Origin: an uncultured Candidatus Saccharibacteria bacterium
GTDB lineage: Bacteria; Patescibacteriota; Minisyncoccia; Phycocordibacterales; CAIRYW01
NCBI GenBank assembly: GCA_964446625.1
Contig: CAYUPH010000005.1
Coordinates: 1,432-65,431, forward strand
Reading direction: 5' to 3'
DNA length: 64,000 nt
In this document: positions 8,088 through 63,785 of the stretch, in pieces
How positions within the stretch are numbered: the first letter of the stretch is position 1
Layout of the letters: every line of letters begins with the position of its first letter
Position numbers and translations under genes: made by a program
Notes under the pieces: generated by a model
Told to the model about the DNA's origin: nothing
The model's input: the letters and a program-made list of their open reading frames with translations, nothing else
Database searches by the model: none

Positions 8088-10694
8088 ATGCCAAAGACTA
8101 TAAAAGAGTATATTGAAGGGCTACGGCAGTATAACCCTGGAATAACTGATACTGAGATTACAGAGTATCTTATTTCAATTGGAAAAAATGCTGAAGAAGT
8201 AAAAAACTCATTAGTCCCAAAAGTAGAAGACGCACTTCCTGCTGCTCTGCCAGAAGTAGTACTTCCGCCTAGAGTAGAATCAAGTACACCTCTACCTTTG
8301 GAGGGGAAAGTACCACAGGAAATTTTGATAGACAAACCTCTTGTTGAAGCACCTAAAGAAGAGATAAAAAAACCAAGCGACTTTTCAGTTGATAAACTCC
8401 TTCAAAACGCTTCATTTCACACAGACTTTTCTCCAAAAATAACAGAGACAGTTGTAGCACCCGAAGTGCCCAAGGCACCGCTTGTTCCAAACAGTGTTAC
8501 TGCTCCAGCTTCTCCAAACTCAGAATCAGAAAACACAGGTTTCGTATCAGGAGAAGCTCCAAAAGAATTTACATACCCGGCAAAGGCTCCTGCTTCACCT
8601 GAAGAAAAGTACAGCGAAGCTCGTTTTGTAAGTGAGACGGTTATTGGTCCGGCTAAGCCAATGTCTACTCCATTCCAAGGTTCAAACAATAATCCAGTAA
8701 GTGGAGGTGGAGCTCCTGTCCCTCAGCAAATGGCTAAAGAAGGTAAAACACTAAAAGTGTTAATTGTAATTGTAGTCATCCTTCTTGTTTGCGCTCTTGG
8801 AGGACTTGGGTATATTTATCGCGATAAAATAAGTAGCCTTTTCTCAGGAGGAGAGATTCTTACAAATGAAAATCTTACTTCTAAACTATTTGACGGTTTT
8901 TCTAAGCTAAAAAACGGAAAAGAAACTGGTTTTGTTGAAATGAGTGTAGAAAATAAAAAGGAGGGGATAAAAACATTTGAAGAAGCCTATTCAAATAGTG
9001 GAGCTCTTGTTTCGTTTAAAAAAGATGTCCAAAAGTTTAAAGAAATAAAAGGTGTTCTTGGGAGTTTAAATACTTATTTTTATCGTAACAAAAAATATCC
9101 ATTAAATGCAGAGGATGCGGGAATAGTAATAAAGGATGAATTGGGCCTCGTTTACAAATCCTCTGCTGATCAGAAGGATTTTTTGCTTGAGACGTCTTTT
9201 GAGTCACTAGATATGATCCATACTTTAAAAAATTACCAAAGTACAGAAGACAAAACAAAGATTCAAATAACAAGCAAAGATTTCTACACTTTCTCCAATT
9301 TGAATTTCGATGAGATAGATCCGTTTATGATTTCAGGGACAGCTTCCTTTTTTGCCTCAAGCGCGTCAGGGTCAAGTGGAATGAAAGCTCGCTTAGATTT
9401 TGATGCTACAAGTGGTGAAAGTGACGGAATGCCTCTTTTTGATGTGTTTACAAAGTTTGCTTTTTCGGGAGATGAGTATGATTTCAAGCTCGCCGGATCG
9501 GCGCGTTATGTAAAAGAAGGATTGTTTTTAAAACTTTCTGAGAGCCCCTCTTTTTTTGGTGACTTTTCAAAGATAAAAGATACATGGATATATCTTGATC
9601 CAAAGGAAGAGTTTGATCCCTTTGGAAAAGGTTCAAACTTTTTTGAAAATTTAAGTAGTGAGAAAATCAAAGAGACGATTTCAAAAACAAAAGATGAAAA
9701 GACAGAAAAAATACTTCGCATTTTTGATGAGGAGTCCTTCATACAAATTGAAGGTGAGCCAGTTAAAATAAAAACTGCGGATGGTAAAGATGCATATGAA
9801 TACACACTTAAAATGCATATGGAAAAACTTCCTCAAATATACCCTAAAATTGCACAGGAGCTAAAACTTCCCGAATCATTTCTTGAGGAAAAGCTGTCCC
9901 TTCCACTTTCTGTTCTTTATCTCAAGTATCTTTCTGATAACCAGACCTTTAAAGTTGCTTTACTCAAAAACGGAACGGTTGTAAAAACTGATTATGATTT
10001 TATTCTTTTGCCGTCTCAAACCGGGGGAGTTCAAAACAAACAAGTTCGTTTTTCATACAGGAGCGAACACACATTACCCGAGGGAGGAGTAAATATTCAA
10101 AAACCAGATCTTTATATTACTCAAACAGATGCATACTTAAAAATTGCTGGGCTCACTCTTACAGAGTTTAAGTATCAAAGGCAAAGAGCAGCGATTTCGC
10201 AAATTATTCTTTCTCTCAAAACATATAAATCCTTTACGGGCGCATTTCCAAAACAGCTTTCTGATTTACTTACTCCAGTTAATATGAAAAACGGAAGCTC
10301 AACTATTAAGGGCGAAGCGTTACTTAGATCACTCCCAAAAAATGTGTATGAAGGTAAGGAGATAGTTTATAAAACAGATGAGAAAGGAAGTTTTTCCTTG
10401 AGTTACTACATTGAAATACCAAACAAGGAAGAAGCTTCTCGTAATGTTCCTTTTTATACAGCCCGTCCTAAAAACATCACTGCACTTGCAACGGTTCCGG
10501 GTATCAATACTGCCACAGAAACAGTTTTCTCTTTAGAAGCTGAAGCGGAAGCTTTGGTAGATACAGATAAAGATCTTCTCTCTGACTCACTCGAAGAGTT
10601 TATGGGAACAAACAAGCTCATGAAAGACACAGATGCCGATGGGCTTTCTGACTACTCTGAATTTATAAGTGGTGGGGACCCTCTAAAGAAATAA
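8088..10694 (+). CDS. hypothetical bitopic membrane protein (868 aa): Ser/Pro-rich cytoplasmic N-terminus, single TM, large extracytoplasmic domain with C-terminal acidic DxDxDG-like motifs
   Basis: TM helix LKVLIVIVVILLVCALGGLGYIY at about aa 222-245. C-terminus DTDKDLLSDSLEEFMGTNKLMKDTDADGLSDYSEF resembles Ca-binding repeats. Confidence 0.6.
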   Translation: MPKTIKEYIEGLRQYNPGITDTEITEYLISIGKNAEEVKNSLVPKVEDALPAALPEVVLPPRVESSTPLPLEGKVPQEILIDKPLVEAPKEEIKKPSDFSVDKLLQNASFHTDFSPKITETVVAPEVPKAPLVPNSVTAPASPNSESENTGFVSGEAPKEFTYPAKAPASPEEKYSEARFVSETVIGPAKPMSTPFQGSNNNPVSGGGAPVPQQMAKEGKTLKVLIVIVVILLVCALGGLGYIYRDKISSLFSGGEILTNENLTSKLFDGFSKLKNGKETGFVEMSVENKKEGIKTFEEAYSNSGALVSFKKDVQKFKEIKGVLGSLNTYFYRNKKYPLNAEDAGIVIKDELGLVYKSSADQKDFLLETSFESLDMIHTLKNYQSTEDKTKIQITSKDFYTFSNLNFDEIDPFMISGTASFFASSASGSSGMKARLDFDATSGESDGMPLFDVFTKFAFSGDEYDFKLAGSARYVKEGLFLKLSESPSFFGDFSKIKDTWIYLDPKEEFDPFGKGSNFFENLSSEKIKETISKTKDEKTEKILRIFDEESFIQIEGEPVKIKTADGKDAYEYTLKMHMEKLPQIYPKIAQELKLPESFLEEKLSLPLSVLYLKYLSDNQTFKVALLKNGTVVKTDYDFILLPSQTGGVQNKQVRFSYRSEHTLPEGGVNIQKPDLYITQTDAYLKIAGLTLTEFKYQRQRAAISQIILSLKTYKSFTGAFPKQLSDLLTPVNMKNGSSTIKGEALLRSLPKNVYEGKEIVYKTDEKGSFSLSYYIEIPNKEEASRNVPFYTARPKNITALATVPGINTATETVFSLEAEAEALVDTDKDLLSDSLEEFMGTNKLMKDTDADGLSDYSEFISGGDPLKK

Positions 10695-10701
10695 ATATTT
10701 T

Positions 10702-10734
10702 TTGATTTGACTTTTGTTTTCACTTTGATAAAAT
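10702..10734 (+). promoter_or_regulatory. promoter TTGACT-N16-TAAAAT with TG extension, 8 nt upstream of the giant-gene ATG
   Basis: ttgatTTGACTtttgttttcactttgaTAAAATaaaaagacATG. Confidence 0.5.
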
Positions 10735-10742
10735 AAAAAGAC

Positions 10743-13700
10743 ATGTATAGGAGAAAGAAAGTAGTACTTTTATTTTTTATTTTGTTTTCGCTTTTTACAC
10801 ATACACCACGCGTTTATGGAGTTGATGCATGGTGGGATGCTTCGTGGCAAAAAAGAATAAAAATCACATTTGCAAACGCAGGAAGAGCAGAGAACCTTAC
10901 AAACTTTCCTGTTCTCGTTTCTCTCTCCTCATCTCGTATCGATTTTTCAGATGTTAACTCAAACGGAAGTGATCTTCGTTTTGTGGATGCAGATGGTACT
11001 ACGGTACTAGATTACGAAATTGAAAAATGGAACCCCTCTGGTACCAGTAGTGTCTGGGTTCGTGTTCCTCAAATCGACGCTTCTTCAGATACAGACTATA
11101 TTTATCTCTATTATAAAAATGCAGGAGCAAGCAGTGGTGCAAATCCTTCTGGTGTTTGGGATAGTAGTTATTTGTCGGTACTTCACATGGGGGACAACCC
11201 TACCTCAAGTGGTCCTCAGCAAGATTCTACAGCAAACAATAGTGATGCGACGTCGATTGCATTAAGTGCAACAACAACAGGTGCTATTGGGGATGCGCTC
11301 GATTTAAACGGAACAACTCAATATGTTCAGTATGCAAGCACTACTTTACCCACTCCGCTTAACGCTGGAACGGTGGAGGTAATTTATAATCCTGATACAT
11401 TTGCATCCGATGTAAACGGAAGGTATTTATTTACAAAAGATAAGTCAGGAACTTATATGGGGGAGTGGCGACTCATGCTTGGTAGTGAGTCTGCTGCGCC
11501 GGCTCAAAGCAATAAACTTGCTTTTCGAATTGAGTGTCCGACTTCGCTTGGAGGAAACGGAAATGCGTGGGCAGTTGTTTCTGATATTGCACCACAGCTT
11601 GCAGGTGGCTGGTATTCTGCAACAGCGGTTTGGAACAAAGCAGGGGGGGCGGGAAACATGAAGCTCTATTGGAACGGAACAGCAACAGGAACCCCTTACC
11701 TTAACACTACTGCTGTTGCCACAGCTGATCCAACCTGTGCAATGGAAGTAAGTGGTGAAAAACCAGAAATTGGAAGAAATAACGGTAAAACAACCCAGGA
11801 CGGATATTTTGATGGTCAAATGGATGAATTTCGAATTTCAAATGTTGTAAGAAGTGCTAACTGGATTAATGCAACCTATGCTTCTAGTTTTGATACTTTA
11901 AACACATATGCTTCAGCGGAGACTCCTCCCGACACCACCCCTCCCGTAATCTCAAGCGTTGCCTCTACAACCGCAGTAACAACAGCAACTGTTACGTGGA
12001 CAACTGATGAATCATCAGACTCTGCGGTATGGTACGGCACTCTCTCTGGTAGCTACACAACCTCAACAACAAGCGCATCCCTCGTTACAAGCCACAGTCT
12101 AGGTCTCACAGGACTCTCTGCAGAATCAACATACTACTTTGTTGTTGTATCTAAAGACGCTTCAAACAACACTTCAACTTCATCTGAATACACTCTTCTT
12201 ACTACCGCAGCTCCCGATACAACAGCCCCTGTTATCTCTTCTGTTGCGACAAGTACCACATCTACAACCGCAACAATTACATGGAGTACAAATGAAAATG
12301 CAACATCAACTGTAAATTACGGTACAACTTCAAGTTATGGATCTGCGTCAACATCTGCATCCTTTACCACTTCACACTCAATTACACTCACCGGACTCTC
12401 TCCACTTACAACTTACCACTTCCAAGTATCTTCTGGAGATTCTTCTTACAACTACGCAACAACAAGTGACTATACAGTGGTGACGGGGGCGTCGACACCT
12501 TCTGCTCCAACGAGTCTTGTTGCAACTGGTTATGATGGTAAGGTAAATGTAAAGTGGACTAATCCTGGAGGAACAATTACCGACTATGCTGTGGAGTACA
12601 AACTTTCTTCAGACTCTGTTTGGTCAATGTTTAGTGACGGCGTTTCAACCGCTACAAGTTCAATTGTCACAGGTCTTACAAACAACTCAGCATATGACTT
12701 TCGTGTAACTACTATAAACAGTGGAAGTTACAGTGCATCTTCTTCTCCTGTTTCCGCAACTCCTCAAGTGGTAATTTCTTTTATAAGCCCAACAATTACA
12801 GGAGGAACATCGACTACCTCTACATCTATAACAGGATATGCTTCTTCTACAATAGCGACGCCAAGTTATATGACTTTCCGTCTTGAAACGAATGGAGGAA
12901 CCCTTGTGTCAGAGGCTACAACCACAACAAGATATGGTGACTACAATATTTCTAATTTAGCTACGACAACAAATAAACAGGATCTATCTATTACCGGAGA
13001 TCTATCCGGAGTCGCGTATGTTCCAACTACAGATACACTTTTTACAATTCACAATAATCAAAATGTTATCCACGAAGTAACAAGGGCGGGAGTAAATGTA
13101 AGGACAATAACATGTTCAAGTTGTAACGATGCGGAAGATATTACACTTGTTTCAAGTGTTGCCTCAACAACTGTTGGCGGGTATGATCACACATTTCTCA
13201 TTTCAACAGAAGATGTAGACACAACTAACCACCAGGTTTTTCGCGTCGTTATTCATTCAACAGGAGCAGCGACTGTAAACCGAACTACTTACTATTCAAC
13301 AGGTATAAGTAGCTCACCTTACACAAACAACGGCTTGGAGGGAGTCGCATACAATTCAAATACAGGTCACTTTTATGCAGCGCTCGAAGGTCAGCAAAAC
13401 GATACAGGAGAACCGAAATTATATGAAGTTACACCAGGAAACATTGCGACACATAGTGCGACAAATCAAAGGATTTGTACTAATTTAAATTTTAGAGATT
13501 ACACAACAACTGATGCTACTCGTTTTCCAGCAAGTCCGGGTTATGCTGATATTTCCGGTTTGTATTATGAGGCAACAAACAATCATCTGTATGTTCTCTC
13601 TCATATGGGAGACAAAATGCTTGAGCTCGATATTTCCGACACTTCAAACTGTGTAGTTTTGAGACAAAAAGGAGTGGTAACACGAGCAGATAGTGGATCA

Positions 13701-16232
13701 AACTTTCTGTTTGAAATGCCCGAAGGAATTTCATGGGACTCAACAGGAGAGTATTTATATGTAGGAACCGAATCCGACTATTGGTCTGTGTGGCGCACAA
13801 CTTCCTATGGAATGAGAAATACATTTTCAGGTCTCTCAGACGGTTCATATAATCTGTATGCAAGTGTCACAGATACAGATGGTATCACTTCAACAACAAC
13901 TGCTCGTTCATTTACAGTGGGTAGTGATGTAACTGCACCTTCAATTTCTAGCGTTGCTTCTTCTACGGATGCTACATCTGCAACAATTACATGGAGCACA
14001 AACGAAGCAGCATCTTCATCGGTACGTTTCGGTCTTTCTACTGCTTACTCTTCTGGTGTTTCTACATCAAGCGGTTCAACAAGTCATTCGGTCAACCTTT
14101 CAGGACTTAATTCAGGTACGCTATATCACTTTGCTGTTTATGCTGCCGACGCTTCAGGGAATAGCGCAACAACAACTGATTATACTTTTACAACAACTTC
14201 AGCACTCGACACCACCCCTCCCGTAATCTCAAGCGTTGCCTCTACAACCACAGTAACAACAGCAACTGTTACGTGGACAACTGATGAATCATCAGACTCT
14301 ACGGTATGGTACGGCACTCTCTCTGGTAGCTACACAACCTCAACAACAAGCGCATCCCTCGTTACAAGCCACAGTCTAGGTCTCACAGGACTCTCTGCAG
14401 AATCAACATACTACTTTGTTGTTGTATCTAAAGACGCTTCAAACAACACTTCAACTTCATCTGAATACACTCTTCTTACTACCGCAGCTCCCGATACAAC
14501 AGCCCCTGTTATCTCTTCTGTTGCGACAAGTACCACATCTACAACCGCAACAATTACATGGAGTACAAATGAAAATGCAACATCAACTGTAAATTACGGT
14601 ACAACTTCAAGTTATGGATCTGCGTCAACATCTGCATCCTTTACCACTTCACACTCAATTACACTCACCGGACTCTCTCCACTTACAACTTACCACTTCC
14701 AAGTATCTTCTGGAGATTCTTCTTACAACTACGCAACAACAAGTGACTATACAGTGGTGACGGGGGCGGATACGACAGGTCCTACAATTTCTAATATTTC
14801 AGTGAGTGAAACTTCGAGTGGAGGAACTATTTCATGGACTACTGATGAACTTGCTTCTTCACTTGTAGCGTATGGACCAGGAACTACTTTTGGAGCAACA
14901 ACTACCGAAACCGATACTTCTCCACGAGTACTGTCTCATTCTGTAGTCTTTTCTGATCTTTTAGCTTGTTCAAGGTACTTCTTTAGAATTGCATCTGAAG
15001 ATGCTGCGGGAAATAGATCATATTCATCAGAAAGCGCTTTTTCAACAACTGGTTGTACAGGGTCAGCTAGTATTGAAGAAGTAGAAGTTGAAAATCTAGA
15101 CGTTTCAACAGGAGGTGCACTTTCAGTTGGGGGAAGCGGTCAACAGATAACTTTAGACATACCAGCAGATGCGACTGCTACATCTTCATCTCTTACATTC
15201 CAACTAAAAATTATTTCTGATAGTAGCGTTATTGATTCTATTAGTACTCCTGCAGACAAATCGGTTGCAGAGGGACATATATATGATTTGAAGGCATTCA
15301 TAAATGCCACAACTACACTTTCAACTTTTGATGAGCCTCTCACTATCACACTCTCGTATGATGATAGTGATGTGCGAGGAGTGTCTGAGTCGTCACTTTT
15401 AATTTATCGATATGATAGCGGTTCTTGGACACCTTTGTCTAACTGTTCCGTAAATACTTCGGCAAACACTATAACTTGTGAGACAGATCATTTCTCAGTT
15501 TTTGGTCTCTTTGGAACTACCCAAAGAAGTAGTAGCGGTGGCGGAAAAAAAGGAGGGAGTTCAAATAAACCAAAAAACACAGATAATACTGTCGCTACTT
15601 CTACTCCAGCGCTAAATAATCCGGTAGTAAATATTTCTGTGTTTACTAAACTACTTGTACTCGGCACTGTTGATACAGAAGTTCTTACGCTTCAGAGGTT
15701 TTTAAACCGTGATCCATTAACTCGAGTTGCAACAACTGGTGTCGGGTCTCCCGGATTTGAGACTTCCAGATTTGGAGAACTTACAAAAGAGGCGGTTATA
15801 AAATTTCAGATTAAAAATGGTATTATTGCTTCTAGGGAAAGTGTTTCTGCCGGAGTTGTCGGACCTCAAACTCGCCTCAAACTAAATTCACTTATTACTG
15901 ACACTTCTACAAGCCCAGTTGTAACAACTCCGAGCGGTCCCGTTGCTCTGGTGCCTTCAAACCAGGTTCTCACAGAGAACTTAGTGCTTGGAACTATAAG
16001 TCCACAAGTTAAAATACTACAACAATTTTTAAACCAGGATTTATCGACTCAGATCGCTCAAAGTGGACCAGGTTCAAATGGGCAAGAGACAGAAAAATTC
16101 GGTTCTCTTACTAAGGAGGCAGTTATTAAATTCCAAATAAAATACGGAATTATAAAAGATAGAACAGACCAATTTGCAGGAACAGTAGGCCCAAATACAC
16201 GTGAGAAGATAAATCTTCTTTTAAAAAAATAA
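10743..16232 (+). CDS. giant secreted cell-surface protein (1829 aa): signal peptide, DUF2341/LamG-like lectin region, multiple Fn3-like modules, C-terminal two peptidoglycan-binding (PG_binding_1) domains
   Basis: Signal peptide MYRRKKVVLLFFILFSLFTHTPRVYG. WWDASWQKRIKITF (DUF2341-like start). Repeated TxAPxISSVAxxTTxTxATITWxTNE Fn3-like modules. C-terminal LVLGTVDTEVLTLQRFLNRD...KFQIKNGI and LVLGTISPQVKILQQFLNQD...KFQIKYGI (PG_binding_1-like, x2). Confidence 0.8.
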   Translation: MYRRKKVVLLFFILFSLFTHTPRVYGVDAWWDASWQKRIKITFANAGRAENLTNFPVLVSLSSSRIDFSDVNSNGSDLRFVDADGTTVLDYEIEKWNPSGTSSVWVRVPQIDASSDTDYIYLYYKNAGASSGANPSGVWDSSYLSVLHMGDNPTSSGPQQDSTANNSDATSIALSATTTGAIGDALDLNGTTQYVQYASTTLPTPLNAGTVEVIYNPDTFASDVNGRYLFTKDKSGTYMGEWRLMLGSESAAPAQSNKLAFRIECPTSLGGNGNAWAVVSDIAPQLAGGWYSATAVWNKAGGAGNMKLYWNGTATGTPYLNTTAVATADPTCAMEVSGEKPEIGRNNGKTTQDGYFDGQMDEFRISNVVRSANWINATYASSFDTLNTYASAETPPDTTPPVISSVASTTAVTTATVTWTTDESSDSAVWYGTLSGSYTTSTTSASLVTSHSLGLTGLSAESTYYFVVVSKDASNNTSTSSEYTLLTTAAPDTTAPVISSVATSTTSTTATITWSTNENATSTVNYGTTSSYGSASTSASFTTSHSITLTGLSPLTTYHFQVSSGDSSYNYATTSDYTVVTGASTPSAPTSLVATGYDGKVNVKWTNPGGTITDYAVEYKLSSDSVWSMFSDGVSTATSSIVTGLTNNSAYDFRVTTINSGSYSASSSPVSATPQVVISFISPTITGGTSTTSTSITGYASSTIATPSYMTFRLETNGGTLVSEATTTTRYGDYNISNLATTTNKQDLSITGDLSGVAYVPTTDTLFTIHNNQNVIHEVTRAGVNVRTITCSSCNDAEDITLVSSVASTTVGGYDHTFLISTEDVDTTNHQVFRVVIHSTGAATVNRTTYYSTGISSSPYTNNGLEGVAYNSNTGHFYAALEGQQNDTGEPKLYEVTPGNIATHSATNQRICTNLNFRDYTTTDATRFPASPGYADISGLYYEATNNHLYVLSHMGDKMLELDISDTSNCVVLRQKGVVTRADSGSNFLFEMPEGISWDSTGEYLYVGTESDYWSVWRTTSYGMRNTFSGLSDGSYNLYASVTDTDGITSTTTARSFTVGSDVTAPSISSVASSTDATSATITWSTNEAASSSVRFGLSTAYSSGVSTSSGSTSHSVNLSGLNSGTLYHFAVYAADASGNSATTTDYTFTTTSALDTTPPVISSVASTTTVTTATVTWTTDESSDSTVWYGTLSGSYTTSTTSASLVTSHSLGLTGLSAESTYYFVVVSKDASNNTSTSSEYTLLTTAAPDTTAPVISSVATSTTSTTATITWSTNENATSTVNYGTTSSYGSASTSASFTTSHSITLTGLSPLTTYHFQVSSGDSSYNYATTSDYTVVTGADTTGPTISNISVSETSSGGTISWTTDELASSLVAYGPGTTFGATTTETDTSPRVLSHSVVFSDLLACSRYFFRIASEDAAGNRSYSSESAFSTTGCTGSASIEEVEVENLDVSTGGALSVGGSGQQITLDIPADATATSSSLTFQLKIISDSSVIDSISTPADKSVAEGHIYDLKAFINATTTLSTFDEPLTITLSYDDSDVRGVSESSLLIYRYDSGSWTPLSNCSVNTSANTITCETDHFSVFGLFGTTQRSSSGGGKKGGSSNKPKNTDNTVATSTPALNNPVVNISVFTKLLVLGTVDTEVLTLQRFLNRDPLTRVATTGVGSPGFETSRFGELTKEAVIKFQIKNGIIASRESVSAGVVGPQTRLKLNSLITDTSTSPVVTTPSGPVALVPSNQVLTENLVLGTISPQVKILQQFLNQDLSTQIAQSGPGSNGQETEKFGSLTKEAVIKFQIKYGIIKDRTDQFAGTVGPNTREKINLLLKK
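11931..12491 (+). repeat. copy 1 of a 561-bp intragenic direct repeat (two Fn3-like modules)
   Basis: Nearly identical to 14208-14768. Only about 2 mismatches seen (ccgcagta/ccacagta, tctgcggt/tctacggt). Confidence 0.85.
14208..14768 (+). repeat. copy 2 of the 561-bp intragenic direct repeat
   Basis: See copy 1. Spacing between copies is 2277 nt, in frame in both. Confidence 0.85.
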
Positions 16233-16611: not shown

Positions 16612-17964
16612 ATGGACCACACAACACTTACAATCTTTGGTGCAACTGGAGATTTGTTTAAAAAGAAACTCGCTCCAGCGCTCTTTGATTTGTATGTGAG
16701 AGGGTCCCTTCCAAACCGATTTACAATACTTGGACTTTCTCGAAAACCACTATCCCACAATGAGTTTAGAAACCTAGCCACCCTTGGTATAGAAAAACAT
16801 GAAGCGTTTACGGAAAAAGGGGAAGGTTTCCTAAGAAGACTTTTCTATTACAGTCTTGATGCTACTGACAGCAATTCTTTTGATCAACTTCGCGAGATTA
16901 TCGATAGAAACGATGCGGAGTTTGCAAGTTGCTCAAATAAACTTTTTTATCTTGCAACTGTTCCTGAGCTCTACGCCCACATATTCACAGGTCTTTCAAA
17001 GGTTGGTTTTTCTGTTCCTTGTGTTCCTCCACTTAGAAAGACAGAAAACTGGTCGCGAATTCTTGTAGAAAAGCCGTTTGGGTATGATGCAAAAAATGCA
17101 GAATTTCTTGAAGAACTTTTGTCAGAGTCTTTTGATGAAAGCCAAATTTTCCGAATTGATCACTATCTTGCAAAAGAGACAGTGCAAAACATACTCGCCT
17201 TTCGATTTAAGAATGCACTTTTTGAGCCTCTTTGGAGTAGAAAATATATTGAGCGAGTGGAGCTAAAAGTATATGAGACAGCAGATATAACAGGAAGAGA
17301 ATCTTTTTATGATTCGATTGGGGCGCTTAAAGACTTTGGTCAAAACCATCTTTTGCAAATGTTAGCCCTCCTTGGTATGGAAGAACCAGAAGACTTTTCT
17401 GGAGAAAAAGTAAGAAGTGCTCGTGCTCGGATTTTAAGTGAGACGAAATCGAGTGAAAATGTCACACTTGGTCAGTACGAGGGGTACGCAAGAGGATCCC
17501 TTATAGGGTCTACAACAGAAACTTATTTTAAAGCGGAGCTTCGAGTGGAGAATGAAAGATGGAAGGGAGTTCCTTTTGTTTTAGAACATGGAAAAGCGCT
17601 CAGTGATAACTTTTCAGGAATTATTGTTTATTTTAAACAAAACCCAGAGACAAAAACACCTAACAATATAAGATTTAAAATTCAGCCAGAGCCAGAAATT
17701 TGCGTTTCTTTAAATGTGTTAGAAACCAATATTGGTTCGAACACAGAAGAGCAGAATATGCTTTGTTTTCCACTGCGAGCAAAGGAGAGTAGCGCTGTGT
17801 ATCCGTATGAAAAGCTATTGTCCGATGCTCTCCTTGGAGATCAGACATTATTTGTTTCAAGCAAGGAAGTAAAGGAAGAGTGGAGGATTGCAGACGAGAT
17901 AAAACAATCTGCTAAAGATACAGAACTTCTTATCTACAAAAAAGGAGAAATCTTTGGGTTATAA
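16612..17964 (+). CDS. zwf: glucose-6-phosphate 1-dehydrogenase
   Basis: NADP-binding FGATGDLFKKKLAPALF and the G6PD active-site signature RIDHYLAKE. 450 aa. Confidence 0.85.
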   Translation: MDHTTLTIFGATGDLFKKKLAPALFDLYVRGSLPNRFTILGLSRKPLSHNEFRNLATLGIEKHEAFTEKGEGFLRRLFYYSLDATDSNSFDQLREIIDRNDAEFASCSNKLFYLATVPELYAHIFTGLSKVGFSVPCVPPLRKTENWSRILVEKPFGYDAKNAEFLEELLSESFDESQIFRIDHYLAKETVQNILAFRFKNALFEPLWSRKYIERVELKVYETADITGRESFYDSIGALKDFGQNHLLQMLALLGMEEPEDFSGEKVRSARARILSETKSSENVTLGQYEGYARGSLIGSTTETYFKAELRVENERWKGVPFVLEHGKALSDNFSGIIVYFKQNPETKTPNNIRFKIQPEPEICVSLNVLETNIGSNTEEQNMLCFPLRAKESSAVYPYEKLLSDALLGDQTLFVSSKEVKEEWRIADEIKQSAKDTELLIYKKGEIFGL

Positions 17965-17971
17965 TAATCTT

Positions 17972-18871
17972 ATGCAAATTTTATATATTGGTCTTGGAAA
18001 AATGGGAAAAGGAATGGCTCTCCTTATGGGAGAAAAAGGTCACAATGTCTTTTGTTATAACCGAAGTGAACTTGGAAGAGCTGAGGCCGTAGAAGCAAGA
18101 CTCAAAGTGTATAGTACAATTCCTTCTCTTTTTGCTGCAGTTCCAGGAAAGAAAATTGTTTTTATTATGGTAAGTCACTCTGGTGTCGATGAAGTTCTTG
18201 CCGAGGTAGTGCCTTTACTTGTGCCAGGCGATATTGTAATCGATGGGGGAAATTGTTTTTATAAAGACAGTCAAAGAAGAGGTGAAATGCTCTTAGAGAA
18301 AAAAATCCACTTTTTGGATGTCGGAGTTTCAGGTGGTCCGGGAGGAGCAAGGAATGGTGCATGTCTTATGATTGGAGGACAGAAAGAAGTTTTTGAAGAA
18401 TTAGAGCCACTCTTTAAAGATATTTCGGATGGAGGAGTCGCGTACTCTTACCTAGGTTCAGTTGGGGCGGGACACTTCGCAAAAATGGTTCACAATGGTA
18501 TTGAGTACGGTATGATGCAGTCAATTGCAGAAGGGTTTAACATACTAAAAAACAGCGGGTTTGAGTACTCTCTTTCTGAGCTCGCAGACCTTTATCAAAA
18601 GAAAAGTGTGATTGAATCACGCCTTGTTGAGTGGCTTCGCGATGGTTTCAAAAAATACGGAGAGGACTTAGAAGGAATTTCTGGAGAAGTTTCGGCAAGT
18701 GGAGAAGGAGAGTGGACAGTTCAGACAGCTAAAGAAAAAAACCTACTCGCAGAGTCTATTGAGCTAGCTCTCAATTTTAGAACAAAAAGCAAAGGTAATC
18801 CTTCATTTGTTGGAAAACTTCTCTCAACAATGCGAACAATGTTTGGGGGTCACGATGTCAAAGAAAAATAA
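17972..18871 (+). CDS. gnd: 6-phosphogluconate dehydrogenase (decarboxylating), short about-300-aa form
   Basis: NAD(P)-binding IGLGKMGKGMA, catalytic-region motifs GVSGGPGGARNG and HFAKMVHNGIEYGMMQ. ATG at 17972 preferred over the track's TTG at 17954. Confidence 0.75.
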   Translation: MQILYIGLGKMGKGMALLMGEKGHNVFCYNRSELGRAEAVEARLKVYSTIPSLFAAVPGKKIVFIMVSHSGVDEVLAEVVPLLVPGDIVIDGGNCFYKDSQRRGEMLLEKKIHFLDVGVSGGPGGARNGACLMIGGQKEVFEELEPLFKDISDGGVAYSYLGSVGAGHFAKMVHNGIEYGMMQSIAEGFNILKNSGFEYSLSELADLYQKKSVIESRLVEWLRDGFKKYGEDLEGISGEVSASGEGEWTVQTAKEKNLLAESIELALNFRTKSKGNPSFVGKLLSTMRTMFGGHDVKEK

Positions 18872-44987: not shown

Positions 44988-45011
44988 GCTTTTTATATGT
45001 GGTAAAATGTG

Positions 45012-45342
45012 TGGGTACACAGATAGTCGCGCAAAGCATTGCTTTGTGAGGAAAGTCCGAACACATAGCCTTTTAAGTAAGGCAAGGTAGCGGGTAACTC
45101 CCGCCTGGAGTAATCTTAGAGGTGCGAACAGAGACGCTTTCTTTTGAAAAGAAGGAAGCACCCGTAAGGGTGAGCTTTTGTGGAAACACAAGAGGTGCAA
45201 CGGCTAAATCCTTACCCATGTGCAAGGCCGTGTCCGCCATGTGCGGAAGTGCCGCTAGAGGTGTTTGGCAACAAGCATCCCAGATAAATGACTATCGTCC
45301 ACTTTGTGGATACAGAATTCGGCTTATCGTGTGCAATATCGA
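45012..45342 (+). ncRNA. rnpB: RNase P RNA (bacterial type A), rnpB
   Basis: Conserved blocks GAGGAAAGTCCGAACAC (P4 5' strand, cf. AGGAAAGUCCGGGC), GGGTAACTCCCGCCTGGAGTAA, and ACAGAATTCGGCTTATCG (P4 3' strand, cf. ACAGAACCCGGCUUA). Preceded by a TAAAAT -10 and followed by a terminator. Boundaries approximate (+/-10 nt). Confidence 0.8.
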
Positions 45343-47692: not shown

Positions 47693-49369
47693 ATGGTCAA
47701 AAGACTTATTAAGTTCGTAGGGAGAGAGGTTTCAGACATTCACGATGCAGCATATGTGCTTGCGATTTTTACTTTTCTAGCTCAACTTGTTGCCCTTGCG
47801 AGGGACAGACTTCTTGCATCACACTTCGGAGCGGGGCAGACCCTAGATGTTTACTATGCCTCTTTTCGAATTCCAGACCTGATTTTTGTGTCCCTTGCAT
47901 CCTTTGTGTCTGTTTCTGTAATGATTCCTTTTATTCAAGAGAAGGTAGGAAAAGGAGAGAAAGAAAGCAAAGAGTTTATTGCAAATGTCTTTACCTGTTT
48001 CTTTGGTGCTATTTTAATTACAGCTGCAGTCGCATTTTTCCTTATGCCCTATATTATCTCAAAAGCGTACAGTGGTTTTACGCCGGAAGCGCAGGAACAG
48101 GTTGTTCTCTTGTCTCGAATACTTCTGCTCTCACCAATTCTTATGGGAGTGTCAAACCTCTTTGCGAGTATTACACAAGCGTTTCGCCGTTTTGCAGTCT
48201 ATGCTCTTTGTCCGGTTATTTATAACCTTGCAACAGTTTTCGGTATCCTCGTTCTTTATCCAAAATACGGACTACAAGGAATTATCTACGGAGTTTTAAT
48301 TGGTGCCTTTCTTCACATGGCGCTTCAGCTTCCTTTTGTTCAAAGCCTTGGACTTATGCCGACACTGCGTTTTGGAATCTCGTGGAAGGAAATAAAAAAG
48401 ATTATTTCTATTTCGATTTCTCGTACTCTCGCGCTCTCTATTCTAAACTTAGCTGTCTTTGCCCTTCTCTCACTTGCTTCTCACATGAACGAAGGATCAA
48501 TTACAATTTTTAATCTTGCATTCAATCTTGAGTCTGTACCGATGTCTCTTATCGGAATTAGTTATTCTATGGCAGCCTTTCCTCTTCTCTCACAACTTTT
48601 TATTGATGGAAAAAAAGAAAAGTTTATCGAGGAAATCGGTGCTGCTATGAGGCATGTCATCTTTCTCTCGGTACCAATTGTAATGCTTTTTATAGTTCTT
48701 CGCGCACAAATTGTTAGGGTAGCTCTTGGAGCAGGAAACTTTAGTTGGCATGATACAAGGCTTACTGCAGCGTGTCTTGCTATCTTTTCAATTGCAGCAA
48801 TTGCACAAAGTGTGTCACTTCTTTTTGTAAGAGCATATTACGCGGCAGGAAATTCAAGGAGACCTCTTCTTGTAAATATTTTCTCCACAGTTTTTATTGT
48901 TATCTTTCCGCTTTTCTTTTTAAAGCTTATGCAAAGCACGCCAGAGTTTACACTCTTTCTTGAAAGTATGCTTCGAATCGAGGGAGTAAGCGGAACTGAA
49001 GTACTCACTCTGCCACTTGGTTTTACGCTCGGCTCGATTTTAAATTCCGCAATATTTTTTGTCCTTTTCAAAAAAGACTTTGGAAGCATTTGGGAAAAGA
49101 TAAGACGAACCCTTTTTCAGAGTGTTTCTTCTGCCATTATTGGAGGAGCTGCGGTGTACGTCTTCCTCAACATCTTTGATGGAATCTTTAGTAAAACGAC
49201 AGTAAAAGGAATTTTTGCACAAGGTTTTCTTTCAGGAATAGGTGGACTTCTTGTTTCTGTTTTTATTTTAAAACTAATGCAAAGTAAGGAACTCACAGAA
49301 GTGATGGATATTCTACGCAGAAAAATCCAAAAGCCCGTTGTAGTGGTTCCAGAGCAAACCGATCTGTAG
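47693..49369 (+). CDS. murJ: lipid II flippase MurJ (MviN)
   Basis: 558 aa, 14-TM MOP-family pattern. N-terminal SHFGAGQTLDVYYASFRIPDLIF typical of MurJ. Confidence 0.8.
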   Translation: MVKRLIKFVGREVSDIHDAAYVLAIFTFLAQLVALARDRLLASHFGAGQTLDVYYASFRIPDLIFVSLASFVSVSVMIPFIQEKVGKGEKESKEFIANVFTCFFGAILITAAVAFFLMPYIISKAYSGFTPEAQEQVVLLSRILLLSPILMGVSNLFASITQAFRRFAVYALCPVIYNLATVFGILVLYPKYGLQGIIYGVLIGAFLHMALQLPFVQSLGLMPTLRFGISWKEIKKIISISISRTLALSILNLAVFALLSLASHMNEGSITIFNLAFNLESVPMSLIGISYSMAAFPLLSQLFIDGKKEKFIEEIGAAMRHVIFLSVPIVMLFIVLRAQIVRVALGAGNFSWHDTRLTAACLAIFSIAAIAQSVSLLFVRAYYAAGNSRRPLLVNIFSTVFIVIFPLFFLKLMQSTPEFTLFLESMLRIEGVSGTEVLTLPLGFTLGSILNSAIFFVLFKKDFGSIWEKIRRTLFQSVSSAIIGGAAVYVFLNIFDGIFSKTTVKGIFAQGFLSGIGGLLVSVFILKLMQSKELTEVMDILRRKIQKPVVVVPEQTDL

Positions 49370-59197: not shown

Positions 59198-59372
59198 GCG
59201 GTTAATATAGCAGAAAAGTAGAAAATGGGGTAGGAGCCTTGTTTTAGGATGATTTTTAGATAATCCACAGAAGCAAATTTTAGTGTATTAAAAAAGTATT
59301 AATTCTGTGTTAAAATCGAAAGAAAATGTTGCACAAATCTTTTATTCAAAATTTTTACCTTCTTTTTTACTA

Positions 59373-62300: not shown

Positions 62301-63785
62301 GCAACTTCAACGAGTGTATTAATAACAGTAGATAGTACTAGTCCAAATATTTCTTCAATTTCCGTCACTGCATCTGAAACAACTGCTGATATTTCTTGGA
62401 CGACAGATGAACCAGCCGACTCACTTATTGATTTTTCTCCTGTTTCTACTTTTATTGCATCTTCTACACCTGACACGAATTTGGTAACAACACATTCAAT
62501 TAGTCTTTTAGAACTTAACTCATGTACAACTTATTATTATCGTGTGAAATCTGTAGACGAAAACAATAATGTTTCTTTTTCTCCTTCGTCAACATTTACT
62601 ACGACAGGGTGTACAGGAAATGCTGAAATCCTTGATGAGACTAATGGTGCAATCACATCACCCGGCGGGTCTTTGTCTTTGCTTGAGGCTGGCACTGGAG
62701 TATCGCTTACAGTTCCTTCAGCGTTCAAATCCGGAGTTTCTACCGCCTACTTTCAGATTAAACAGTTAGAAAGCCTGGATTTCTTAGCTGTTGTTTCTAC
62801 TCCACCTAATGTATCGCTTGTGTCAGGTTATATATATAACCTTGTATCTTTGCCAACAGCAACATCTTCTCTTACTTTATTTGATAATCCGTTAACAGTA
62901 AGTATAGTGTACGATGATGCTGATGTTGAGTCGTTGGATGAGTCTACGTTTACTATATATCGTTATGATGAGGGTGTATGGACACTGCTTTCTAACTGCT
63001 CTGCACATGAGGACACAAACACTGTGACATGTGAGACGTCTCACTTTTCAGAATTTGGACTTTTTGGTCAAGCTCAGTCAATTGATGTAACACCAGGTTC
63101 TTCTTCTGGCACTATAAGTGAAGGAATTCATTATGGTTGCAAAGACTCTAGTGCTTTGAATTATAATTTCTTTTCAAGGCACAAGCAGGATCTTTGCAAG
63201 TACGCAAATAAGGAGATTTCACAGAGTAAGTATAGTTTCAACAGAGATCTGGAATTAGGCATGGTAGGAGATGATGTGCTTGCACTTCAAAAAGTGTTAA
63301 ACTCTCTCGGATTTATTGTCGCACATTCAGGACCAGGATCACCGGGCAATGAGACAAACCTATTTGGTTCCGCAACAAAGTCTGCGCTTATGAGATATCA
63401 AGCATCCATGAATATTTTTCCTTCTAGAGGCTATTTTGGGCCAATGACACGCACAAGAATACAAGAATCGGCTGTTCAGGATGTGATCCAAGCTACTTTG
63501 AGCACTACCCCAGAATCTTCTGTAGAAACAAGCATAAAATTAAAATCATTTTCAAGAGATCTTTCAATTGGTATGACAGGAGAAGATGTAAGGATGCTTC
63601 AAGTTTTTCTTAATTCGAATGGGTATTTAGTGTCTTTGGCAGGAGTTGGATCGCAAGGACATGAAACAAATTATTTTGGAGAAAATACCAAAAAAGCATT
63701 AATACGATTCCAAACCGCTAGTAGCATTACTCCTGCGTTGGGATATTTTGGAAAAGTGACACGAGATTTTGTTAATTCTAAATAA
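59373..63785 (+). CDS. giant secreted cell-surface protein (about 1470 aa): signal peptide, about 14 tandem about-50-aa beta-propeller-type repeats, InlB-B-repeat-like and bacterial Ig-like domains, Fn3, C-terminal two PG_binding_1 domains
   Basis: Start at ATG 59373 (MKKERKK..., signal ...FLFPFAYAG) downstream of a TGTTAAAAT box that overlaps the track's TTG start at 59307. Repeats GGxFTTIGGQTRNRIAALSTSxGTATAWNPNAGSTVYxLxLDxxNSLxYV. C-terminal LELGMVGDDVLALQKVLNSLGF and LSIGMTGEDVRMLQVFLNSNGY (PG_binding_1-like). Confidence 0.8.
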   Translation: MKKERKKTRRIFAIIAPLFFEREKGISFTKVKEASFLACIFACFLFPFAYAGDMPSVPNSDMWVTNGTVYAVQTDGSTTYIGGSFTYVGPRTGNGAPINISSGTVTSGYENINGVVRAVVSDGSGGWYIGGDFTRVGSFTRNRVAHILSDGSVDSSFNPNSGGAVYALAYDAGNSLLYIGGNFITMSGSTRNYIAAVNSSNGSLSSWNPNAGGAVLSLSLDSANSQIYVGGSFTTIGGQSRSRIAALSTSAGTATAWNPGANNSVNSIVVDSSNSLIYIGGDFTTAGGQTRNYIAALNSSDGTATSWNPASGSTVNSLALDSANSLIYVGGAFTTIGGQTRNRIAALSTADGTATAWNPNSGSAVYRVVLDSTNSLVYAGGNFTSIGGQTRNYVAALSTSSGSATSWNPSPVNTVRSLTLDLANSQIYVGGDFSTIGGSTRNNIAALNASTGSLTSWNPNAGSTVYVLTLDSANSLLYAGGDFTTIGGQTRNRIAALSTSAGTATAWNPNAGSTVYAFSLDNSNSLIYVGGNFTTIGGQTRNRIAALSTSAGTATAWNPNAGSTVYSLSLDRLNSLMYVGGNFTTIGGQTRNRIAALNTSDGTATAWDANAGGTVYAVALDTDNAVVYAGGAFTTIGGQTRNRLAALSPSGGTATAWNPNANSTVYVLLLDSNNTVLYVGGDFSTIGVQTRNKAVAFKTSDGSTNTWDPNINNTVRAFGLDPTNSILGVGGAYTSMGGSSQLYFASFVNTFTITASASAHGTITPLGDTVLNGGDDQSYTITPEAHYHVEDVLVDGVSVGAVSTYTFSNVSADHTISVSFSIDQQTLSYSAGAHGSISGDISQTIDYGTNGTAVEAVADSGYHFSDWSDSSTANPRTDTGVTDDISVTANFVIDADIIPPTVSITSPSDSGVVSGVVAFSADASDNISIEGVKFYSNSALIEDDTSYPYSVSLDTGLMSDGNYTLSAVARDTSGNYATSTSVLITVDSTSPNISSISVTASETTADISWTTDEPADSLIDFSPVSTFIASSTPDTNLVTTHSISLLELNSCTTYYYRVKSVDENNNVSFSPSSTFTTTGCTGNAEILDETNGAITSPGGSLSLLEAGTGVSLTVPSAFKSGVSTAYFQIKQLESLDFLAVVSTPPNVSLVSGYIYNLVSLPTATSSLTLFDNPLTVSIVYDDADVESLDESTFTIYRYDEGVWTLLSNCSAHEDTNTVTCETSHFSEFGLFGQAQSIDVTPGSSSGTISEGIHYGCKDSSALNYNFFSRHKQDLCKYANKEISQSKYSFNRDLELGMVGDDVLALQKVLNSLGFIVAHSGPGSPGNETNLFGSATKSALMRYQASMNIFPSRGYFGPMTRTRIQESAVQDVIQATLSTTPESSVETSIKLKSFSRDLSIGMTGEDVRMLQVFLNSNGYLVSLAGVGSQGHETNYFGENTKKALIRFQTASSITPALGYFGKVTRDFVNSK
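59620..61590 (+). repeat. about 13-14 tandem 150-nt coding repeats; adjacent units 60826-60908 and 60976-61058 are identical over about 80 nt
   Basis: Periodicity of exactly 150 nt (50 aa). Produces a long spurious antisense ORF (60803..61393). Confidence 0.8.

Follow-up and report, generated by a model that had tools for sequence, protein, structure and literature searches.

The window analysed here is a 64,000-nt stretch of DNA from an uncultured Candidatus Saccharibacteria bacterium (contig CAYUPH010000005.1, positions 1,432 to 65,431), and its longest open reading frame (ORF; 10743..16232, + strand, ATG start, 1829 residues) encodes what is best explained as a Sec-exported, modular surface protein of about 189 kDa from a bacterium of the Patescibacteria (candidate phyla radiation, CPR). 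The domain that directly precedes its C-terminal wall anchor, called the tail domain below, looks like a β-sandwich of the GAIN-B/ZU5 type resembling the MAIN (microbial GAIN-like) domain, and it contains an H-F-S motif at which, by analogy with characterised domains of this kind, the chain would cut its own backbone between F1584 and S1585. The reading that we prefer, and consider reasonably probable, is a cleavable tether, in which the two fragments produced by this cut would stay docked non-covalently and separate under load. Proteins of this kind are already known, as they were predicted in 2012 and demonstrated in a 2026 preprint; what is new here is a phylum outside that survey, a rare anchor and several peculiarities of the subfamily.

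Little has been learned so far about how the ultra-small, host-dependent CPR bacteria attach to their hosts and leave them, and most of their giant surface proteins lack annotation. A GAIN-like joint beside a wall anchor would make two 'hypothetical giant proteins' of the window, together with hundreds of relatives that carry the same cassette, accessible to testing, and would bring into the MAIN family a phylum and, with PG_binding_1, a type of anchor that the RefSeq-based survey barely sampled. The gene was first singled out in an annotation of the letters alone (the original prediction), which described it as the largest of the window and as coding for a secreted, wall-tethered protein; its extent and rank are as stated there, and a Pfam scan combined with structure prediction of the individual domains showed the proposed domain list to be largely right. 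Both regions that had been left unassigned, the central region and the tail domain, now have names.

The tail domain and its H-F-S motif

The C-terminal part of the protein contains the following features:

15054..15515, +: predicted MAIN/GAIN-B/ZU5-like β-sandwich (residues 1438-1591, with C1438, C1568 and C1579; AlphaFold2, Foldseek)
15489..15497, +: H1583-F1584-S1585, predicted autoproteolysis site between F and S (DSSP on the model, motif)
15516..15629, +: Gly/Ser/Lys-rich flexible linker (residues 1592-1629; sequence, low predicted local distance difference test (pLDDT) at the end of the model)
15675..15875, +: PG_binding_1 module 1 (residues 1645-1711; Pfam, 25.0 bits against a cut-off of 23)
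16002..16208, +: PG_binding_1 module 2 (residues 1754-1822; Pfam, 27.3 bits against a cut-off of 23)

The AlphaFold2 model of residues 1432-1600 (pLDDT 87.6), obtained with an alignment of 24 homologous tails sharing 35-61% identity, shows 11 strands of at least three residues and two short helices. When this model was compared with the PDB by Foldseek, all 8 matches at E<=1e-3 were GAIN or ZU5 domains, namely the GAIN domain of BAI3 (4DLO, E 1.2e-4) and the ZU5 domains of ZO-1, ankyrin and UNC5b, and the matches just below significance were the FIIND of NLRP1 and the GAIN domains of GPR110 and latrophilin. Self-cleaving domains of eukaryotes belong to this class of fold. According to DSSP the H-F-S motif occupies the turn between the last two strands of the model (residues 1576-1583 and 1586-1593), and its F and S are among the 12 invariant columns of the 24 aligned tails. 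A domain ending in DHFSVFGLFG had been noticed previously and proved real, with an extent of about 155 residues and a fold that is now assigned to the GAIN-B/ZU5 type.

The sequence searches point to the same place. A sub-threshold match to the Pfam GPS family (PF01825; E 0.23) lies over ...SNCSVNTSANTITCETDHFSVFG, at the position of the H-F-S motif, with 11.9-12.4 bits against a cut-off of 22.5; GPS matches were found in 5 of the 24 family members and a ZU5 match in one. A 46-column profile of the C-terminal part of the tail domain, run against 177,635 PDB sequences, retrieved just two of them, both corresponding to the GPS motif of ADGRF1 and both with an E value of about 1. In this alignment W..C.VN....VTC.T-HFS-.F is placed on WNDAGCHLVNETQDIVTCQC-THLT-SF, which brings H-F-S into register with the cleavage site between HL and T; the match counts as support only when taken together with the predicted fold. 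The search of PDB sequences with the profile of the whole tail domain gave nothing significant. Among plasmids, tblastn found a relative in an SpvB/TcaC protein of Aliiroseovarius that ends in ...KAETDHFTDFIAG, a match that is relevant because bacterial ZU5 autopeptidases have been described in a toxin-type context with SpvB/TcaC (Zhang et al. 2012, PMC3482391). That work united ZU5, GPS and Nup98 in one autopeptidase superfamily, predicted that bacterial ZU5 domains are autopeptidases, and recorded ZU5 domains in large surface proteins as well, alongside adhesion modules and hydrolases. The SpvB/TcaC protein matched by tblastn reads ...ETDHFTDFIAG, to be compared with ...CETDHFSVFGLFG here. 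In the toxins, which are RHS proteins, the ZU5 domain lies close to the N terminus, with release of the filament as its proposed role, whereas the tail domain is C-terminal, directly before a wall anchor, and is not accompanied by any toxin domain.

The experimental reference is the MAIN domain of B. subtilis YfkN (Brogan & Rudner, bioRxiv 10.64898/2026.05.12.724683, May 2026). Edman degradation placed the cut in YfkN between the F and the S of HFS, an S-to-A change blocks cleavage and S-to-T restores it, the fragments remain associated, and the ectodomain can be stripped from the cells; release triggered by shear was proposed. In the common order of MAIN proteins a signal peptide is followed by adhesion or enzyme domains, the MAIN domain and a wall anchor, and the protein described here, like YfkN and the IgA-Fc receptor of S. 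agalactiae, consists of a signal peptide, a large adhesion/lectin/Fn3 ectodomain, a GAIN-B-like sandwich with HFS in its last β-turn and a wall anchor. The size class is also alike (about 189 kDa here), since the preprint, which surveyed RefSeq Select, reports about 15,000 RefSeq MAIN proteins with a mean of 158 kDa. Its list of partner domains includes DUF2341, SdiA-regulated, fn3, Pur_ac_phosph_N and PG_binding_1, all of them present here. Three of these are rare in the survey (SdiA-regulated with 2 proteins, PG_binding_1 with 3 and DUF2341 with 6), and the names Patescibacteria, Saccharibacteria and Parcubacteria were not found in the text and supplements to the extent that these were available. 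The differences concern the phylum, the anchor (two non-covalent PG_binding_1 modules here, not sortase or SLH), a conserved pair of cysteines by which the domain appears to be stapled to the Fn3 module before it, and the lack of the His at position -2 in most members of the present subfamily. The kinship with YfkN is seen in fold, motif and architecture, the sequence link being indirect, through the ZU5-type domain of SpvB/TcaC.

The GAIN domains of adhesion G-protein-coupled receptors (GPCRs) and polycystin-1 (Arac et al. 2012, PMC3321182; 4DLQ, 4DLO and 8HC0) offer a second comparison. Their subdomain-B sandwich is alike, their H-hydrophobic-S/T site lies in the turn ahead of the last strand, they are placed between an adhesive ectodomain and a surface anchor, and their fragments are retained non-covalently, as would be the case here by analogy. 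In contrast, the tail domain has no helical GAIN-A subdomain and is directly preceded by an Fn3 module, its motif region contains two cysteines (C1568 and C1579) instead of the four of the eukaryotic GPS, and what comes after it is a linker and then two PG_binding_1 modules, not a domain with seven or eleven transmembrane helices (7TM/11TM). Membership of the eukaryotic type of GAIN was rejected on these grounds (no subdomain A, no 7TM domain and a GPS score below the cut-off), and no tethered-agonist signalling is expected because no 7TM receptor follows the tail domain. The SEA domains and the bacterial SEAL domains of RsgI anti-sigma factors (PMC10556640) share the concept, that is, self-cleavage in a β-turn, non-covalent association and force-dependent separation. 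Their fold is unrelated to that of the tail domain, and SEAL feeds into intramembrane proteolysis and sigma-factor signalling, for which no link is seen here.

The Gly/Ser/Lys linker and the two PG_binding_1-like modules had both been anticipated and are present. The Pfam scores of the modules (PF01471) were obtained with each of them scanned alone, and the two share 58% identity. Their identity as PG_binding_1 domains is clear, and the pair is predicted from it to bind the peptidoglycan of the cell itself. Sortase anchoring was considered and rejected, as the C terminus (...GPNTREKINLLLKK) has neither an LPXTG motif nor a hydrophobic segment and the ORF ends at K1829.

In the cleavable-tether reading the protein would be exported, its signal peptide being removed, and the C-terminal PG_binding_1 pair would attach non-covalently to the cell's own peptidoglycan. 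On folding, the MAIN domain would cut the backbone between F1584 and S1585, as YfkN and GAIN domains do, by an N-O acyl shift with S1585 as the nucleophile and H1583 as the base. The last strand (S1585-T1593) would stay hydrogen-bonded in the sandwich, so that a 163-kDa acidic ectodomain (residues 27-1584, pI 4.3) would remain docked on a 26-kDa basic, wall-bound stub (residues 1585-1829, pI 9.95). The joint between fibre and anchor would be releasable because it would be self-cleaved and held non-covalently: once the LamG or propeller head had bound its ligand (a host-cell surface, glycan or matrix) at the end of a stalk in which the Fn3 modules may act as spacers, load on the joint would separate the fragments and release the ectodomain.

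The second giant gene and the cassette family

A second gene of the window carries the same C-terminal arrangement:

59307-63785, +: second giant gene, 1492 residues from a GTG start (ORF)
62331..63776, +: paralogous C-terminal cassette, comprising an Fn3 module with Cys, TGCTG, a MAIN-like domain ending in CETSHFSEFGLFG, a linker and two PG_binding_1 modules (BLASTP, motif scan, Pfam)

This gene had been placed at 59373-63785 and is present, with its start moved to 59307. The two giant genes had been described as sharing an anchor, which is correct, and the similarity extends beyond the anchor to a collinear cassette of about 490 residues (38% identity, E 1e-92 by BLASTP). Because the entire succession of Fn3, MAIN, linker and two PG_binding_1 modules is shared, the common element would be a release-and-anchor cassette and not just an anchor. 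A motif scan showed that both giant proteins keep HFS, which in the second gene lies at 63042-63050. The head of the second protein differs and consists of a long array of DUF5122-type propeller repeats, Flg_new_2 and Big_7, and its linker contains extra Cys residues (YGCKD...DLCKY).

An exhaustive search with a hidden Markov model (HMM) of the tail domain gave 7578 clusters (50% identity) at E<=1e-3 and 652 at E<=1e-30, and the breadth of the cassette was therefore set, by this tail-domain profile, at a minimum of 652 clusters at the stricter threshold. The full architecture of the giant protein is found in relatives that include P0002, P0004-P0010, P0012-P0014 and P0031, where DUF2341, LamG, fn3, the YjiK propeller and the Fn3 repeats are followed by PG_binding_1, with the tail domain present or not. 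The tail domain reaches far beyond this architecture, and its other heads include a metallophosphoesterase, a GDSL lipase and SASA. Throughout the family the cassette stands ahead of an anchor: one or two PG_binding_1 modules come after the tail domain in 108 of 168 relatives; ten of the other 60 were read, nine of which have a Cys-bounded Fn3-like module and most a hydrophobic C-terminal tail. P0194, P0160, P0169, P0207, P0143, P0199, P0124, P0239 and P0162 show a Ser/Gly linker, a Cys-bounded Fn3-like module and, mostly, a short hydrophobic tail in place of PG_binding_1, a combination that looks like an alternative anchor.

Two features of the family are strongly kept. One Cys in the last Fn3 module together with one Cys at the start of the tail domain occurs in 152 of 165 family instances, a pairing that suggests an Fn3-MAIN unit stapled by a disulfide, and the last two positions of the motif (xFS) are found in 164 of 176 tail-domain instances. 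A more distant relative of the tail domain occurs in haloarchaeal surface proteins, as on the plasmid NZ_CP101160.1 of Natronosalvus amylolyticus (L021, 202792-204192), where a degenerate site (...RFETTNPGVFGIFATEDSD) stands ahead of a long Asp/Pro/Glu repeat; it looks like a non-cleaving archaeal version.

Several points weigh against the cleavable tether. The residue at -2 is His in just 36 of the 176 instances (about 20%), the others including N (49, the commonest residue at this position), A (25), G (19) and Q (13). Because this His is kept in so few of them, self-cleavage may not be the conserved role of the domain. The Foldseek scores are moderate (E 1e-4, with template modelling (TM) scores of 0.5-0.57 on the query), and the GPS and ZU5 matches at sequence level are below significance (E 0.08-1). 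Demonstrated MAIN cleavage lies outside the Patescibacteria, so that cleavage here is a prediction by analogy, and the experimental support for the MAIN family comes from one preprint that is not peer reviewed. An anchor of non-covalent PG_binding_1 modules is able to detach by itself, so that the need for another breakable joint is less evident. Finally, the head is an adhesin only as a putative label, and for PF06977, the family of its central propeller, the literature gives no established biochemical function and mentions just YjiK, LEE rOrf1 and the Ca2+-related CarP.

These points bear on a tenable though doubtful alternative, namely that the GAIN-B/ZU5-like domain serves structurally, as a stalk or adaptor that is not cleaved, comparable to the cleavage-deficient GAIN domains of some adhesion GPCRs, and that the protein is one continuous chain held by PG_binding_1 alone, the picture given in the original prediction. 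The loss of the -2 His in about 80% of the subfamily, with fold and FS maintained, suggests selection on structure rather than on catalysis; the closest structural match, BAI3, carries Arg at -2 and was uncleaved in its crystal; and the Cys pair that apparently staples the last Fn3 module to the tail domain would fit a rigid stalk element. On the other hand, both copies in the window keep the H-F-S triad, the very motif that is cut in YfkN, an invariant Ser in the turn answers no structural need, and the preprint found nearly all of the tested MAIN domains cleaved. We retain the cleavable tether as the preferred reading. An unusual further reading of the replacement of the catalytic His in most members (by N, A, G or Q) is that catalysis is arranged differently there, or that the family switches between tethers that can be cleaved and tethers that are permanent; the frequent loss of this His bears on whether MAIN domains are always cleavage devices.

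A broader idea is offered as speculation that we regard as improbable: Patescibacteria may hold a large, lineage-specific 'display and release' cassette, made up of the Cys-stapled Fn3 module, MAIN, linker and PG_binding_1, that is fitted to many heads, both adhesins and hydrolases, and could act as a force-sensitive breakaway joint for attachment to and detachment from hosts or for shedding enzymes onto them.

The ectodomain and its internal repeat

The part of the protein preceding the tail domain is divided as follows:

10743..10820, +: signal peptide (residues 1-26, MYRRKKVVLLFFILFSLFTHTPRVYG, followed by VDAWW; predicted by inspection by eye)
10821..11930, +: DUF2341 (residues 74-139) and Laminin_G_3/concanavalin-A-like domain (residues 189-375), putative ligand-binding head (Pfam)
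11931..12491, +: Fn3-like modules F1 and F2 (residues 397-583), recent duplicate of F5-F6 (563-nt repeat)
12492..12764, +: classical fibronectin type III module F3 (residues 584-674; Pfam fn3 at residues 587-672)
12765..13928, +: central region (residues 675-1062), YjiK/SdiA-regulated β-propeller at about residues 739-1019 with flanking strands (Pfam, AlphaFold2, Foldseek)
13929..15053, +: Fn3-like modules F4-F7 (residues 1063-1437; Pur_ac_phosph_N stretches, module alignment)

By eye, the signal peptide that had been predicted shows an RRKK n-region, a 12-residue hydrophobic core and a VYG/VD site, and in orthologues AxA sites stand immediately ahead of the conserved (V)DAWW; cleavage at this position is predicted from the sequence. 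If the N-terminal hydrophobic segment were instead an uncleaved anchor in the membrane of the epibiont, the topology would be reversed, with the PG_binding_1 pair bound to the wall of the host and MAIN serving for quick release from it. Cultured Saccharibacteria live attached to walled hosts, the closest relatives of the protein are labelled Saccharibacteria, Parcubacteria or Patescibacteria, and the signal peptide was judged by inspection alone, all of which would suit such an arrangement. It is nevertheless very unlikely, given the canonical AxA signal-peptidase sites of the orthologues right ahead of the DAWW mature start, the role of the C-terminal element as the cell's own anchor in all surveyed MAIN proteins, and the hydrophobic C-terminal tail (a self-anchor) that some relatives carry in place of the PG-binding modules.

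The DUF2341/LamG-like N-terminal region is supported by Pfam matches in this N-to-C order (DUF2341, 55.8 bits against a cut-off of 23.4; Laminin_G_3, 50.9 bits against 27.6), and the unit of both domains, a type of head known from giant surface proteins of archaea and CPR bacteria, recurs in 1-3 copies in other giant Patescibacteria proteins, including P0049, P0053, P0058 and P0080. A search of PDB sequences with the N-terminal region gave zero matches, and no established biochemical function was found for DUF2341 in the literature. The designation 'adhesin or carbohydrate-binding fibre' is a reasonable but putative functional label.

The Fn3-like modules are real, and where at least six had been counted the module alignment gives seven, the Pfam family Pur_ac_phosph_N, which has an Fn3-like fold, matching 6 stretches of the protein. 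F3 is the classical one, with PDB sequence matches to the Fn3 domains of titin, PTPRF and DCC. F5-F6 (residues 1156-1342) is the parental copy of the duplication, and F7 holds C1409.

The central region is a YjiK/SdiA-regulated β-propeller. It had been described as a region of about 450 residues with unknown fold; it is indeed a distinct region, of about 390 residues (675-1062), and the fold is now identified. PF06977 (SdiA-regulated/YjiK) covers residues 747-1010 with 77.9 bits against a cut-off of 21. The AlphaFold2 model of residues 673-1066, based on an alignment of 16 homologues, has a pLDDT of 87.3 and a predicted TM score of 0.86, and its top PDB match is the C-terminal domain of E. coli YjiK (3QQZ; E 3.5e-13, TM score of 0.81 on the target, 19% identity), followed by generic propellers. 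The likeness to E. coli YjiK and to P. aeruginosa CarP, both of PF06977, consists of the propeller HMM match and this best structural match; those are small proteins of Gram-negative bacteria, whereas the present propeller is embedded in a giant protein of many domains. The flanks of the propeller are confidently modelled as five strands before it (residues 678-727) and four after it (residues 1022-1059), and when joined they give weak Ig-like matches across the junction (Big_13 with E 0.0014, Y_Y_Y and Gmad2). According to the model, the propeller is probably inserted in one Ig-like domain that is split between both flanks. The first propeller blades contain an invariant C-x-x-C (residues 791-794, 13113-13124) with D-x-E-x-I-T-L after it (TCSSCNDAEDITL), and further conserved cysteines are C912 and C970. 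No other patch of the central region is as conserved as this CxxC patch, which is a candidate site for a ligand or a metal.

A Phytase-like match overlaps the propeller close to the threshold (26.5 bits against 27.6). It raises the view that the ectodomain serves mainly for enzyme display, the YjiK/phytase-like propeller acting as a nutrient-scavenging hydrolase (of esterase, lactonase or phosphatase type), LamG targeting the substrate and release by MAIN allowing action at a distance. This would agree with the true enzymes (metallophosphoesterase, GDSL lipase, SASA) found with paralogous cassettes of relatives, with hydrolases being the most enriched MAIN partners in the preprint, and with the link of P. 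aeruginosa CarP to Ca2+ homeostasis. Yet no member of PF06977 with established catalytic activity was found in the literature, no catalytic motif was identified in the propeller, and the remaining ectodomain (LamG, 7 Fn3 modules, Ig-like) is typical for binding proteins, which leaves this view of the head unlikely. It overlaps with both the cleavable tether and the uncleaved stalk.

Within the gene, a direct repeat of 563 nt (11930-12492 and 14207-14769, with an offset of 2277 nt or 759 codons) duplicates F5-F6 in frame as F1-F2. The copies differ by 2 mismatches, both non-synonymous (A411/T1170 and A428/T1187). The two copies, 99.6% identical, lie within a single gene of an assembly of short-read style, which could indicate that the ORF is a chimera made by the repeats, an outcome that the original prediction had itself named as a refutation. 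Several observations make this extremely unlikely. Both junctions of the upstream copy are unique in sequence and in frame, and the two copies are told apart by their non-synonymous changes. A syntenic orthologue, P0004, lacks only the upstream copy and is otherwise collinear, as the rest of the gene is with at least 10 other homologues. Because P0004 and P0002 have no Fn3 modules between LamG and the classical fn3 and P0005 and P0006 have one there, the upstream copy appears to be a recent in-frame insertion at a permissive site. Two contigs on record, one of 53.6 kb (ENA) and one of 66.5 kb (NCBI), also encode the identical protein; the 11,490 nt of the ENA contig that were compared match the window without a difference, so the assemblies may not be independent. 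With unique junctions of the extra copy and a remainder collinear with many homologues, a real, recent duplication is much more likely than mis-assembly. Neither a lack of PG_binding_1, Fn3 and LamG matches nor a chimeric assembly, the two outcomes that would have spoken against the original prediction, was observed. If the repeat copies recombined, the segment from the classical fn3 through the YjiK propeller to F4 would be lost in frame, and such repeat-mediated loss of the head could be a route of surface variation.

Locus and neighbouring genes

Upstream of the giant gene lie genes for GidB, a DNA-alkylation-repair protein and an 868-residue membrane protein with no Pfam match, and downstream a 122-residue coiled-coil-like ORF, G6PD, 6PGD and a PPDK-like gene. 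As the flanking genes are housekeeping genes, the locus is chromosomal and not a mobile element. The G+C content is 0.41-0.42 inside the giant gene and 0.37-0.39 around it. The order is kept in P0004, in which GidB and the DNA-alkylation-repair gene precede the giant gene and G6PD and 6PGD follow it. G6PD and 6PGD, of the oxidative branch of the pentose-phosphate pathway (16612-18871, +), adjoin the giant gene on its 3' side, and this synteny is maintained in P0004.

One promoter-like site precedes the start codon:

10707..10734, +: promoter-like site, TTGACT-16 nt-TAAAAT, with TG before the second hexamer (consensus scan alone)

Its end is 8 nt upstream of the ATG, and no Shine-Dalgarno sequence is visible between the site and the ATG (10707-10742). 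Since the site is so close to the start codon and no Shine-Dalgarno sequence is seen, the mRNA of the giant gene may be leaderless or have a very short leader, a proposal to be read with the fact that the number of promoter-like sites in the region is not above the shuffled expectation.

The 868-residue ORF (8088-10694, +) belongs to no Pfam family and has an N-terminal part rich in Pro, Ala and Glu, a single transmembrane segment (LKVLIVIVVILLVCALGGLGYIY) and a large extracytoplasmic part whose C-terminal end consists of Asp-rich, thrombospondin-type-3-like repeats (DTDKDLLSD...DTDADGLSDYSE). A functional operon of this gene with the giant gene was considered and rejected. In P0004 the giant gene stands directly after the DNA-alkylation-repair gene, and because the 868-residue gene is absent from this syntenic locus, its product is probably not an obligate partner of the giant protein. 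An NCBIfam scan of both giant proteins and of the 868-residue ORF gave no informative family.

Elsewhere in the window, a gene for the lipid II flippase MurJ (47693-49369, +) is consistent with a peptidoglycan wall in this organism, and a bacterial RNase P RNA of class A is located at 45011-45340 (+, 133.6 bits).

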